Position numbers and translations under genes: made by a program. Below the pieces are notes generated by a model. The model saw only the letters and a list, made by a program, of their open reading frames with translations, made no database searches and was not told where the DNA came from. 64,000 bases of DNA from an uncultured Planctomycetota bacterium (GTDB lineage: Bacteria > Planctomycetota > PLA2 > JAEUHO01). The DNA lies in NCBI GenBank assembly GCA_963752285.1, contig CAVVXN010000005.1, positions 1,120,001 to 1,184,000 on the forward strand, in the 5' to 3' direction. This document shows positions 22,105 through 25,146 of the stretch, one piece after another (positions within the stretch are counted from its first letter, which is position 1; every line of letters starts with the position of its first letter).

Positions 22105-22839
22105 TCACCGCGGGGGAAAGCCCATGCCCGGATAGCCCCCCAGCGTCTTCGCGATCTTCTCGGCATCGTCGGGGGTGACGCCCCGGATGCGGCTCACCGT
22201 GGCCTGGAAGTCGGCATGGCTCTGGACGAGCACGTCCCTCCGCCTCTCGGCGTCCCACTTCTCGCGCGCCGCCTGCATCATGACGTCCCGGTTCTTCTCC
22301 CGATACGTGCGCGTCGCGGCGACCACCGCGGCCCGCGGCTCGGCGTCGAGCATCACACCGGCGCGCTCGAGCACGTTCTCGATGCTCTTCCTCTCTCTCT
22401 CTTCGCGGTCGCGCCGCGACACCTCGTCCCGCAGCGCGCGGAACCACGCGATCTCCTCGGGGTCGAACTCGTCCTTCCCTCCGGCCTCCCTCGGCTCGAC
22501 GCTCGCCGGCGTCTCGACGCCGGAGGTGCCCGCGTCGCCCGCGGACGCGTCCGGCTCCTTCGTCTCGCCGGCGCGCGACGACTCGATCTTCTCCAACCGC
22601 TCCTCGAGCCGGCGCATGCGAGCGAGGAGGGTCTCGTAGGCCTGCCCGTCGAGCGCGGCGGGCGGCCGCACGTCGGGCGAGGGCAGCGCGGGTGTCGCCG
22701 ACGGTGGGGTGGTGACGGGGATCCGGGCGCCCTCCCCCAGGGCGGGCCCGGTGACGCGGTCGGACCGCAGGAAGAGGTCGTAGGTCAGGATCCCGGCGGC
22801 CACGAGCGCTGCGGTAACGAGAACCTGGACGAGGCGCAT
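22105..22839 (-). CDS. hypothetical membrane-anchored coiled-coil protein
   Basis: N-terminal hydrophobic anchor, charged helical body, GGAGAG RBS. Confidence 0.65.
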   Translation of the reverse strand: MRLVQVLVTAALVAAGILTYDLFLRSDRVTGPALGEGARIPVTTPPSATPALPSPDVRPPAALDGQAYETLLARMRRLEERLEKIESSRAGETKEPDASAGDAGTSGVETPASVEPREAGGKDEFDPEEIAWFRALRDEVSRRDREERERKSIENVLERAGVMLDAEPRAAVVAATRTYREKNRDVMMQAAREKWDAERRRDVLVQSHADFQATVSRIRGVTPDDAEKIAKTLGGYPGMGFPPR

Positions 22840-22902
22840 CGGAGACTCTCCCGGGACCACGGGCGATCCTATCGACGCCCGCCGGCCCCCGTGCGGCGCG
22901 CA

Positions 22903-22932
22903 TTCGACGCCGGCGCCACCCCCTGGTATACC
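22903..22932 (+). promoter_or_regulatory. possible sigma70-type promoter for tRNA-Val
   Basis: TTCGAC...TGG-TATACC ending about 20 nt upstream of the tRNA; imperfect match. Confidence 0.35.
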
Positions 22933-22951
22933 CGTCGCCGCATCGACCCCG

Positions 22952-23028
22952 GGGCGTTTAGCTCAGTTGGCTAGAGCACCAGCTCGACAAGCTGGGGGTC
23001 ACTGGTTCGAGTCCAGTAACGCCCACCA
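22952..23028 (+). tRNA. tRNA-Val(GAC)
   Basis: Acceptor stem GGGCGTT/AACGCCC, D arm GCTC..GAGC, anticodon arm CCAGC-TC-GAC-AA-GCTGG, T arm ACTGG-TTCGAGT-CCAGT, encoded CCA. Confidence 0.97.
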
Positions 23029-23760
23029 CTTCTTCGGTCGGAGCTCCCAGGTCGCGCGCTTCGTCGCCCGTCGATCGGTCTTCGTCGGACTCGAACCCGC
23101 GACCCCCACGGGGTCGATCATCCTGGGGGGCCGAGCCCCCCAGACCCCCACCGGTTCGAGTCCAGTAACGCCCACCACTTCTTCGGTCGGAGCTCCCAGG
23201 TCGCGCGCTTCGTCGCCCGTCGATCGGTCTTCGTCGGACTCGAACCCGCGACCCCCACGGGGTCGATCATCCTGGGGGGCCGAGCCCTTGAGACCCCCAC
23301 CGGTTCGAGTCCAGGAACGCCCACCACTTCTTCGGTCGGAGCTCCCAGGTCGCGCGCTTCGTCGCTCGTCGATCGGTCTTCGTCGGACTCGAACCCGCGA
23401 CCCCCACGGGGTCGATCATCCTGGGGGGCCGAGCCCTTGAGACCCCCACCGGTTCGAGTCCAGGAACGCCCACCACTTCTTCGGTCGGAGCTCCCAGGTC
23501 GCGCGCTTCGTCGCCCGTCGATCGGTCTTCGTCGGACTCGAACCCGCGACCCCCACGGGGTCGATCATCCTGGGGGGCCGAGCCCTCGAGACCCCCACCG
23601 GTTCGAGTCCAGGAACGCCCACCACTTCTTCGGTCGGAGCTCTCAGGTCGCGCGCTTCGTCGCCCGTCGATCGGTCTTCGTCGGACGCGAACCCGCGACC
23701 CCCAGGGGGTCGATCATCCTGGGGGGCCGAGCCCTTGAGACCCCCACCGGTTCGCGCTCC
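23004..23760 (+). repeat. tRNA-linked tandem array: 5 x 149-bp units plus a partial sixth start
   Basis: Units start at 23004, 23153, 23302, 23451 and 23600 (partial at 23749). Each begins with the tRNA 3' 25 nt GGTTCGAGTCCAG(T/G)AACGCCCACCA; few substitutions between units. Confidence 0.97.
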
Positions 23761-23871
23761 GTAGCGCGCGCCCTGTACTCGCTCGACCCGTCGCGGTCGC
23801 AGAGCGCGCGCTCTGTCGGTCGATCGCCTGCGGTTCCTTCTCTACCCGGGCGGGCGTGTTGCCATCGAAGG

Positions 23872-24210
23872 GTGCTCGTCTCCGTCTCCGCCCTCGGCTC
23901 GGCCGCGATCGCGTACGCGACGCACGTCCTCGCCGGTTGGCCGGCGTGCGCGGTGGCCGCGGTGTTCTGCGCCGGGATGTCGGCCTTGACCTTCGTGTAC
24001 TTCGGCGTGGACAAGGCCCGGGCGCGTTCCGGCGGACGCCGCATCCGCGAGGCGGATCTCCTCGGGGCCGCGCTGCTCGGCGGCGCGTTCGGGGCGCTCC
24101 TCGGCATGCGTCGCTTCCGCCACAAGACGCGCCACCTCCGCTTCCGGATCTTCGTGCCGACGCTGCTCCTGCTGCAGGTGGCGCTCCTCGCCTACGCCGC
24201 GTCCCGGTAG
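23872..24210 (+). CDS. DUF1294-family small membrane protein
   Basis: FVYFGVDKARA....RIRE..L...LLGGAFGALLGMRRFRHKT signature; start uncertain. Confidence 0.85.
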   Translation: MLVSVSALGSAAIAYATHVLAGWPACAVAAVFCAGMSALTFVYFGVDKARARSGGRRIREADLLGAALLGGAFGALLGMRRFRHKTRHLRFRIFVPTLLLLQVALLAYAASR

Positions 24211-24288
24211 TCGTCTCCGGAAGGCGGCGCCCCGCCCTCGACCGCGGTTCCGAGCGGGGCGCGGCCGATCGCGCCGGCGAACGTGCGC

Positions 24289-25146
24289 CTACTCTCGGAG
24301 GTCGAAGACGACGTCGGAAGCGCCGCTCTCGATCGACTTCACGACGGGCACCGTGACGCGGCCCCGGGCGAACCACGCCGCCACCCGGTACGCGCCCTCC
24401 GGCAGCTCGGAGACGACGAACGATCCGTCCGCCCCGATCTTCGCGCGTCCGACCGCGAAGTGCGGGTAGGCCTCGACCGAGACCTCGACCCGCGGGAGCG
24501 ACTCCGCCGAGGCCACCAGGAGCCGGCCGCGGATCTGCCGACCCTCGGTCGCCAGAACGCGCTGCTCGTCCTCGCCCGTGCGAAGTCCGCCTCGACGAAC
24601 GGGATGGCCCTCGTCGGCGACGGCCCACACCTCGAGATCGCGATCCGACGGAAGTCGAACGAAGCGCGTCCAGCCGTCGGCGCGGATCGGCGCGTAGCGG
24701 ACCGGACGCCTTCCGTCGGGCTCCTGCCACACGAGACGCGCGTAGCGCGGCTCGCCCGGCGGCGCGACGTAGCCCTCGATTCGCAGGAAGAGCTCGGGAC
24801 CCGGGTCGAGCACGACCCGGAGATCGGCGACGCCCGCCGTGGTCTCGACCCGAACGCCCGCGGCCGAGGTCAGGTTCGCTTCGCCGGGGATCACGCGCAG
24901 CGTGAGCTTTCCCTCCGGAACGCCGTCGATCCGAAACCGCCCGTCGGGACCCGAACGCCACCACGCCACGCCGCCCGTCCGGTTCCGGTAGCCCTCGCGC
25001 GTGATCCATACGCCCGGAATCGCCCGGCCCTTGGCGTCCTGGACGACGCCGACGACGGTCGTGGCGGGACCCGCCACGACGACGCGGAAGGCGAACACGG
25101 TCGCGCACGCACATCCGACGAGAGTGAGGAGATCCCGGGCTCGCAC
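24289..25146 (-). CDS. exported protein with carboxypeptidase-regulatory-like (beta-sandwich) repeats
   Basis: GVVQDAKGRAIPGVWI..SGPDGRFRIDGVPEG and ADGSFVVSELPEGAYRV repeats; hydrophobic N-terminus; start uncertain. Confidence 0.65.
   Translation of the reverse strand: MRARDLLTLVGCACATVFAFRVVVAGPATTVVGVVQDAKGRAIPGVWITREGYRNRTGGVAWWRSGPDGRFRIDGVPEGKLTLRVIPGEANLTSAAGVRVETTAGVADLRVVLDPGPELFLRIEGYVAPPGEPRYARLVWQEPDGRRPVRYAPIRADGWTRFVRLPSDRDLEVWAVADEGHPVRRGGLRTGEDEQRVLATEGRQIRGRLLVASAESLPRVEVSVEAYPHFAVGRAKIGADGSFVVSELPEGAYRVAAWFARGRVTVPVVKSIESGASDVVFDLRE

Follow-up and report, generated by a model that had tools for sequence, protein, structure and literature searches.

A tandem array of structured, tRNA-tail-bearing repeats behind a planctomycete tRNA-Val gene is best described as a new RtT-like family

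Directly behind the only tRNA gene of the 64,000-nt stretch of DNA analysed here (hereafter the window), which comes from an uncultured Planctomycetota bacterium, a 149-nt unit is repeated in tandem. The gene encodes tRNA-Val(GAC) and lies at 22952–23028 on the plus strand (ARAGORN; Rfam RF00005, 68.7 bits). What kind of element is this array, and is the fold that its units are predicted to adopt maintained? An initial annotation had proposed that each unit holds an antisense copy of the tRNA T-arm, that this copy closes a three-way junction, and that the structure is under selection. From our analysis, the units are best regarded as an RtT-like family of structured repeats bearing tRNA tails, a family that is new and uncatalogued. 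The kind itself is already known, as RtT of E. coli has the same architecture. At about even confidence, we read the array as an RtT-like, tRNA-linked element, most likely a co-transcribed and processed trailer RNA.

The array begins inside the tRNA gene. Tandem Repeats Finder delimits it at 23000–23754 (unit of 149 nt, 5.1 copies, matches 98%), and the last 29 nt of the tRNA (23000–23028) form the first repeat copy. Each unit consists, in this order, of a 58-nt spacer whose start resembles a tRNA trailer, an antisense arm, two hairpins (H1 and H2), a short linker and a tRNA-tail copy ending in CCA. The antisense segment is the reverse complement of the tRNA T-loop, the 5' half of the T-stem and the variable loop; its left arm, GGACTCGAACC, is followed by CGCGACCCCC upstream of H1 (CGACCCC-CAC-GGGGTCG). 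H2 (CTGGGGGGC-CGA-GCCCCCCAG) is perfect in unit 1 and weakened in units 2–5, while the tail copy spans the last two T-stem pairs and the T-loop and runs on to CCA. Unit 1 (23029–23177, plus strand, as are all units) has its antisense arm at 23087–23097, H1 at 23100–23116, H2 at 23123–23143 and its sense arm at 23153–23163, which opens the tail copy (23153–23177, with the CCA end). The corresponding positions are 23236–23246, 23249–23265, 23272–23292 and 23302–23312 in unit 2 (23178–23326), where H2 is weakened to GCCCTTGAG and a T is replaced by G in the T-stem 3' half of the tail copy. They are 23385–23395, 23398–23414, 23421–23441 and 23451–23461 in unit 3 (23327–23475), and 23534–23544, 23547–23563, 23570–23590 and 23600–23610 in unit 4 (23476–23624). 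The distal unit 5 (23625–23773) has its antisense arm at 23683–23693, H1 at 23696–23712, H2 at 23719–23739 and a right arm, GGTTCGCGCTCC, at 23749–23760.

The structure drawn in the initial annotation, a 77-nt three-way junction with two hairpins, is returned exactly by RNAfold for 23080–23180 (−52.6 kcal/mol, z = −6.0; none of 200 shuffles was as stable). Its closing helix pairs GGACTCGAACC with GGTTCGAGTCC over 11 bp and encloses H1 and H2. The 21-mer from which that annotation had started, GGACTCGAACCCGCGACCCCC at 23087–23107, is indeed the reverse complement of tRNA positions 22994–23014 at 19 of 21 positions, and all coordinates given there are exact against the sequence; the complementarity to the tRNA extends to 31 nt at 81% (25/31). 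Since the five units were copied from one another, they amount to a single event. In a control for chance over 46 ARAGORN tRNA calls of the genome, tRNA-Val(GAC) alone has an antisense 21-mer of its own T-arm within 300 nt downstream (2 mismatches), the best downstream antisense 21-mer of the remaining 45 calls having 6–11 mismatches. Unit searches, motif scans and a covariance model (described below), whose matches are the five units, confine the unit to this array in the 4.64-Mb assembly. The antisense piece is equally near to tRNA-Arg(CCT), tRNA-Asp and tRNA-Val(GAC), with a local score of 19 each, and by sequence alone any of the three may be its source.

Unit 5 had been singled out for a compensatory change. 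The T to G at 23687 in its left arm (GGACGCGAACC, 23683–23693) is real and is matched by an A to C at 23755 in the right arm. Unit 5 differs from the consensus of units 1–4 at 13 positions, 4 of them in its first 124 nt (three private substitutions, of which the T to G is one, and a fourth difference common to units 2 and 3) and 9 in its last 25 nt. The sequence and pairing of the right arm are as annotated, but the arm has to be read as part of a decayed tRNA-tail copy, which is still recognisable as such in the model alignment. The right arm (11 nt) is the best-kept part of that tail, with one substitution and one inserted C. The boundary between young unit and old tail lies inside the T-loop sequence, after GGTTCG. 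By a rough estimate, the chance of one of three private changes giving the exact compensating base and letter is about 0.008. Selection on pairing would explain the change, and hairpin-templated correction of the DNA would explain it, too.

Does the structure recur beyond this genome? A BLAST-type search of 60 relatives revealed similar arrays behind tRNA-Val(GAC) in other genera, namely in G018 (147 nt × 2.2) and G015 (genomes are given by our labels, the window's being G000). Covariance model R1, built from 8 units with the closing helix and H1 as the only structure supplied, matches unit 1 at 23083–23177 with 99.5 bits and unit 5 with 85.3 bits. It recovers 19 full-length modules in 9 of 29 genomes and 4 of 16 genera of the family, 14 of these modules being in 8 genomes beyond the window's; all carriers are Planctomycetota metagenome-assembled genomes (MAGs). 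No module was found by R1 in the sister family (11 genomes), and in a 151-genome sample of the phylum it matched only the window's genome and one genome of the same family. All 19 modules are located directly 3' of a tRNA gene and on its strand: behind Val-GAC in G000, G018 and G015, behind Val-CAC in G001 (142 nt × 3), G005 (149 nt × 2), G018, G022 and G027, behind Ile-GAT in G028 and behind Pro-GGG in G021. The distance from CCA to the antisense arm is 56–58 nt in the first units of G000, G018, G015 and G028, with shorter spacers in G027 and G021. Unit lengths across the relatives are 111–163 nt, with 132–150 nt in most arrays and 111 nt in G027.

Comparison of these modules extends the evidence for pairing far beyond the single covarying pair of the initial annotation. 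Pairs were counted on the model-built alignment of the 19 modules (17 distinct, 9 genomes). Standard pairs occupy 89.4% of 388 cells, against 25–50% when the 3' partners are slid by 1–3 columns; covariation scores 0.266, the shuffles averaging 0.120. Both sides have changed in 11 of 23 pairs, which was reached by none of 500 column shuffles, although the sequences are related and this count is no probability. The alignment was fitted to the closing helix and H1 and favours both. H2 stands outside the model, and there both sides have changed in 4 of 5 pairs, though the five window rows and G015 are out of register in this part; its stem occurs as GGCGC/GCGCC, GCCGC/GCGGC, GACCC/GGGTC, GGTCC/GGACC and AGCCG/CGGCT. 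The closing helix tracks the T-loop type of the adjoining tRNA (GGACTCGAACC/GGTTCGAGTCC, GGATTCGAACC/GGTTCGAATCC and GGACTTGAACC/GGTTCAAGTCC) and is present in the minimum-energy fold of each of the 17 distinct modules. The proposal that the structure is maintained is thus borne out by the homologues.

The antisense arms follow the tRNA next to which they lie. In 16 of the 17 distinct modules the antisense 21-mer agrees with the local tRNA at 17–20 of 21 positions, and in G005, G001 and G021 the match is exact over the first 18–20 nt. Part of the matching sequence is the T-stem 5' half, which varies from tRNA to tRNA and finds no pairing partner within the unit. Only G022 departs from this pattern: its unit keeps an older version of the T-arm, and the tRNA itself has changed. 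Judged from these alignments, such agreement would arise if the arms were copied or converted from the tRNA gene, or if being complementary to the tRNA were selected for.

No catalogued family explains the units by sequence. A cmscan of 22500–24300 at E-values up to 10 gave no match to RtT (RF00391; gathering score 45 bits), RF00391 was absent at the gathering threshold from 10 homologous loci of the relatives, and Rfam found no family besides tRNA on these loci. In the positive control, E. coli K-12, RF00391 matches all three units with 134–138 bits. The likeness to RtT is one of plan. At the tyrT locus of E. coli K-12, 178-nt units (× 3.1) follow tyrV, each ending in the 3' end of tRNA-Tyr, just as the 149-nt units (× 5.1) of the window stand in tandem directly behind a tRNA gene, on its strand. 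In both, each unit ends in a copy of its own tRNA's 3' end with CCA, an antisense copy of part of this tail pairs with the tail copy to close a multi-branch fold that contains two inner hairpins, and the ...CCA end stays single-stranded. The RF00391 consensus accordingly has a closing helix (GgGaaGGAU with AUCCuuCcC) around two inner hairpins, followed by unpaired ccaCCACCA. A literal word search of open-access text, which is weak evidence of absence, found no RtT-like families outside enterobacteria and no tRNA-tail repeats in Planctomycetota.

What would such an element do? The reading as a co-transcribed trailer RNA draws on the strict position and orientation of the modules behind tRNA genes, on the trailer-like start of each unit and on the precedent of RtT, which in E. 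coli is reportedly processed out of the tRNA operon transcript into a discrete RNA (original paper Bosl and Kersten 1991, as cited in PMC3318445). The units would be read through from the tRNA promoter. Because each of them ends in the tRNA's own 3' end, followed by a similar trailer, the enzymes that finish tRNA 3' ends would cut them out as folded RNAs of ~150 nt. The closing helix would lock the pseudo T-arm, keeping it from competing with the real tRNA 3' half, and would leave a single-stranded, tRNA-like ...ACCA end, while the copy number would shift by unequal recombination between tail copies. A related array in G013 is located between tRNA-Ile and tRNA-Ala, two genes that are 14 nt apart in the window's genome, and probably sits inside a tRNA transcript. 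Our guess is that the released RNA serves as a mimic of the tRNA 3' end or as a modulator of tRNA processing.

Several observations weigh against a processed RNA. The 14-nt tail 3' of the closing helix has no partner strand, so the unit forms no obvious tRNA-like substrate, and a consensus scan for promoters and terminators at the array found none. The reverse complement folds slightly better in 14 of the 17 distinct modules and the sense strand in 3, so that, as far as predicted energies go, folded DNA would fit the fold data equally well; counts of G.T against A.C are 11 and 21, confounded by register shifts. The units of the window array are 97–100% identical to one another and therefore young. 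The syntenic AlaDH / tRNA-Val(GAC) loci of G001, which belongs to the same genus, and of G009 carry a terminator-like hairpin only, which makes the array a recent gain. At tRNA-Val(CAC) the flanks were not comparable with those of G001. Such a recent gain, together with the patchy spread over 4 of 16 genera, suits a mobile DNA element better than an old functional RNA. The sharp age boundary in the T-loop of unit 5, with 3–4 changes in 124 nt on one side and 9 in the 25-nt tail on the other, is what would be expected of a displaced attR-like tail.

A serious, if less probable, alternative is that the array is such a DNA element: a gene-less integrative cassette whose 149-bp unit recombines at the T-loop of tRNA genes by means of a recombinase acting in trans. 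The recombination site would then include the folded or cruciform junction, in loose analogy to integron attC and the folded attP of CTX phage, and arrays would grow by repeated insertion or by sister-chromosome exchange. Besides the boundary in unit 5 and the lineage-specific gain, this explanation is favoured by a single module backbone behind four different tRNA species, by mosaic units (the Val array of G018 has one unit with an Ile-like tail and a different H2), by the unit of G022 with a T-arm unlike that of the adjoining tRNA, by a fold that is equally good on both strands, and by tRNA-Val(GAC) being, in this family, a hot spot for ordinary islands. However, no recombinase gene adjoins the window array (its neighbours include AlaDH, MatE and a sigma-54 activator), modules were not found where gene-carrying islands end, and no integron integrase above cut-off was found in the genome. 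In G015 the array is separated from a distant tail copy by 16 kb, in which there is an IS110 transposase but no integrase. The classical attachment-site (att) remnants of tRNA-Val and tRNA-Gly begin at the anticodon loop and are without the antisense and hairpin module, the type-1 backbone pattern is absent from the viral contigs searched, and a closing helix of 11 bp is too short for a two-subunit recombinase core. If this explanation were true, the unit would be a minimal integrative cassette without a gene of its own.

Two further explanations appear very unlikely to us. In the cis switch or antisense regulator suggested by the initial annotation, the arm would alternate between the variable loop and T-arm of the real tRNA, blocking its maturation, and the downstream decoy tail. 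The arm is complementary to the tRNA at 19/21 (25/31) positions, the match being exact over 18–20 nt in the three genomes named above, and the predicted duplex (−46 kcal/mol) is more stable than the 11-bp helix alone (−19.5 kcal/mol). For the tRNA together with unit 1, the junction form at −111.1 kcal/mol and the forced arm:tRNA form at −108.2 kcal/mol are separated by a gap of 2.9, a switch being feasible on these predicted energies. However, these are in silico energies of a truncated transcript, which take account of neither tRNA tertiary structure nor co-transcriptional order; the first unit alone lies close to the tRNA, later tail copies are without the variable-loop part, and the G022 unit keeps its internal helix while no longer matching its tRNA. 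The array could also be a neutral by-product, for which we see an equally small probability, in which a stretch with an inverted tRNA fragment was tandemly duplicated by slippage or unequal crossing-over at short T-loop homologies and the apparent structure is no more than inverted tRNA-derived sequence kept tRNA-like by gene conversion. The youth of the units is in keeping with this, as is an antisense 21-mer whose match to the local tRNA (17–20/21 positions) includes T-stem bases unpaired inside the unit, suggesting copying or conversion from the tRNA; templated hairpin correction could also have given the unit 5 change without selection. Yet H2 and the right strand of H1 have no tRNA template and their pairing is kept by compensatory changes, architecture and unit length are mostly kept across four genera, and E. 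coli RtT follows the same plan without sequence similarity.

There is also a wider proposal, which we consider unlikely. The units would be widespread, unrecognised, gene-less elements that colonise tRNA 3' flanks, rebuild both arms from the host tRNA (the variable loop, T-stem and T-loop in antisense, the tail in sense) and spread between tRNA loci by T-loop recombination with host machinery or machinery acting in trans. They would be co-transcribed with the tRNA into folded RNAs with an 18–20-nt antisense to it and a free, tRNA-like CCA end, which possibly act on tRNA maturation or on uncharged-tRNA sensors, and E. coli RtT would be one member of a cross-phylum class.

The genes flanking the window array encode AlaDH, MatE, a sigma-54 activator and a CarboxypepD_reg protein. 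The array itself is crossed by long open frames, which extend through the tRNA and change frame from one 149-nt unit to the next. Contigs from four DNA runs over the array are mostly tRNA-only pieces; one 151-nt contig covers 22988–23138, and no joints were seen. A search for RNA runs covering 22300–24600 returned none. A pattern for the type-1 backbone matched 5 loci in genome contigs, all in Planctomycetota MAGs, nothing in viral contigs and, in metagenome contigs, one truncated and aberrant copy that was left out of the analysis. This copy (L069:1-160, minus strand) consists of the right half of the module (H1 right strand, linker, H2 and T-loop), with a sense sequence resembling the anticodon arm of tRNA-Val(CAC) where the antisense arm would be expected and with no ARAGORN tRNA call. 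A looser antisense-hairpin-sense pattern matched 24 loci, 13 of which are tRNA-Glu genes that by chance lie behind a GAACC, 2 are known Planctomycetota units, 2 are from a Bacteroidales MAG and the others are unrelated or unclear. In the Bacteroidales MAG (L076:150-240 and L086:109-199) a tRNA with anticodon GTC is followed by a terminator-like hairpin, an antisense copy of variable loop and T-stem, hairpins and a tail copy in sense orientation. The layout is comparable although the phylum is unrelated, and the closing helix would be only ~6 bp.

Other tail-bearing repeats are present in the same genome and in its relatives. Elsewhere on the window's contig, three units of 180 nt stand behind tRNA-Met(CAT) (G000:C5:242700-243331, minus strand). 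In each, an exact 15-nt antisense of the anticodon-stem 3' strand, variable loop and T-stem 5' half precedes hairpins and a tail copy. In the predicted fold the acceptor strand of the tail pairs with an upstream strand, and the result is a tRNA-like cloverleaf that has additional arms. Beyond a further 1.4 kb, which hold two reverse-strand open frames, lies a fourth tail copy; one of the frames may encode a metallophosphoesterase, a guess from its sequence. Tail-bearing units of a third type, of 211 nt or ~444 nt, are located behind tRNA-Pro(CGG) (G000:C5:2005903-2007100) and tRNA-Pro(GGG) (G000:C4:53600-54124); in the long form, a GGGGGG/CCCCCC hairpin has an insertion of ~240 nt in its loop. 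G013 seems to have units of this third type, too, namely the 150-nt units that separate tRNA-Ile from tRNA-Ala (L036:572-871).

A second unit type occurs behind tRNA-Val(GAC) in G015 and G028 (L008:1262-1447, L013:1530-1730 and L043:1-232). Its outer arms, CCAGTGACCCC / GGGGTCACTGG, correspond to the variable loop and T-stem 5' half with the T-loop excluded, and its ends are conserved while the length of the middle varies. The G028 assembly breaks inside its second-type array; tRNA-tail arrays thus break MAG assemblies at tRNA genes, and they can pass for att scars in annotation. In G015, 16 kb downstream of the tRNA-Val array, we noticed a tRNA-Val 'minihelix' without D or anticodon arms (L042:1745-1790, G015:C3), in which the acceptor 5' strand is fused to the T-arm and acceptor 3' strand (GGCGTTACTGG-TTCGAGC-CCAGTAACGC...). 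A stretch of 29 nt identical to H2 of unit 1 and the ACCCCCAC that follows it lies just past a stop codon in G011 (L007:1501-1529, G011:C77), the gene upstream looking like that of ribosomal protein S7 when read from its C-terminus alone. It may be that the H2 hairpin moves on its own as a small terminator-like module. In 6 of 23 loci of relatives (L019 and L028-L032; G008, G017, G010, G020, G024 and G007) tRNA-Val(CAC) is situated 21–135 nt downstream of tRNA-Val(GAC); in the window's genome the two genes are far apart.

How does the array compare with other known systems? Like the remnants left by integrating islands, it has tRNA 3' copies downstream of an intact gene, with the distal copy the oldest. 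It also has a direct copy of the tRNA 3' part bounded at a tRNA loop, the tail copies starting at the T-loop and the age boundary of unit 5 lying in GGTTCG. Some integrase subfamilies are said, in an account attributed to Williams (2002), to cross over in the T-loop. No island genes, and no integrase, lie between tRNA and repeat, the 149-nt units being gene-less. True att remnants in this genome and family, at tRNA-Gly(CCC), tRNA-Arg(CCT) and tRNA-Val(GAC), differ in that they start in the anticodon loop (~47 nt identity) and are separated by kilobases of gene-containing DNA; their arm-type repeats are direct, and antisense arm and hairpins are missing, whereas the window array has 149-nt spacing and a conserved fold. 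At tRNA-Gly(CCC), at least five classical partial-tRNA repeats extend over 64 kb (G000:C1:500-64613), each running from the anticodon loop to CCA with ~40 nt of common flank and arm-type motif repeats upstream, which looks like tandem island accretion; tRNA-Arg(CCT) has a similar partial-tRNA copy 38 kb away.

Integron attC sites and cassettes resemble the array in forming series of units that share structure more than sequence, in being imperfect palindromes with outer boxes of the form AAC...GTT, and in having the unit junction at GTT. In the window units, by contrast, the 11-bp closing helix leads at once into a three-way junction, so there is no L box, and the units are gene-less. Their flanking bases do not fit what we take to be the attC R-box consensus. 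The best integron integrase match in the genome (TIGR02249) falls into two pieces of 116 + 88 bits, where the cut-off is 265, and the middle of the model is absent from it. Repetitive extragenic palindromic (REP) sequences, bacterial interspersed mosaic elements (BIMEs) and miniature inverted-repeat transposable elements (MITEs) are likewise short, GC-rich, hairpin-forming and non-coding and are able to cluster; the module is not such an element, as it is not dispersed, being limited to the window array in this genome and to positions behind tRNA genes in the relatives. The terminal inverted repeats of a transposon-like element, which the initial annotation had also considered, fit poorly for the same reason and because the right 'repeat' is the start of the tRNA-tail copy. 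The array is also not a clustered regularly interspaced short palindromic repeat (CRISPR) locus, since the whole 149-nt unit repeats at 97–100% identity and leaves no variable spacers.

RtT is thus the closest counterpart in plan, and the differences from it are those of an independent family. There is no sequence or covariance-model similarity, and phylum and tRNA are others. The window units use the T-loop itself for the closing helix (GG+TTCGAGT+CC) and leave a 14-nt tail, whereas in E. coli the helix is built from the 3' half of the T-stem together with the beginning of the acceptor strand, and 8–9 nt are left. The Planctomycetota family, moreover, serves four tRNA species with arms matched to each. 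In E. coli, according to a passage in PMC3318445, rttR is encoded by one repeat unit of the tyrT operon, and a passage in a preprint (bioRxiv 10.1101/2024.07.17.603846) describes its role, possibly in transcript processing and the stringent response, as still unknown. The catalogue lists RtT under one family, RF00391. A second, unrelated family that follows the RtT plan in a distant phylum, varied enough to show that the fold is maintained, turns the RtT design from an E. coli curiosity into a recurrent one open to comparative study. It also allows predictions to be tested, namely that RNAs of unit length end in CCA, that probing reveals the junction and that copy number changes at the T-loop.

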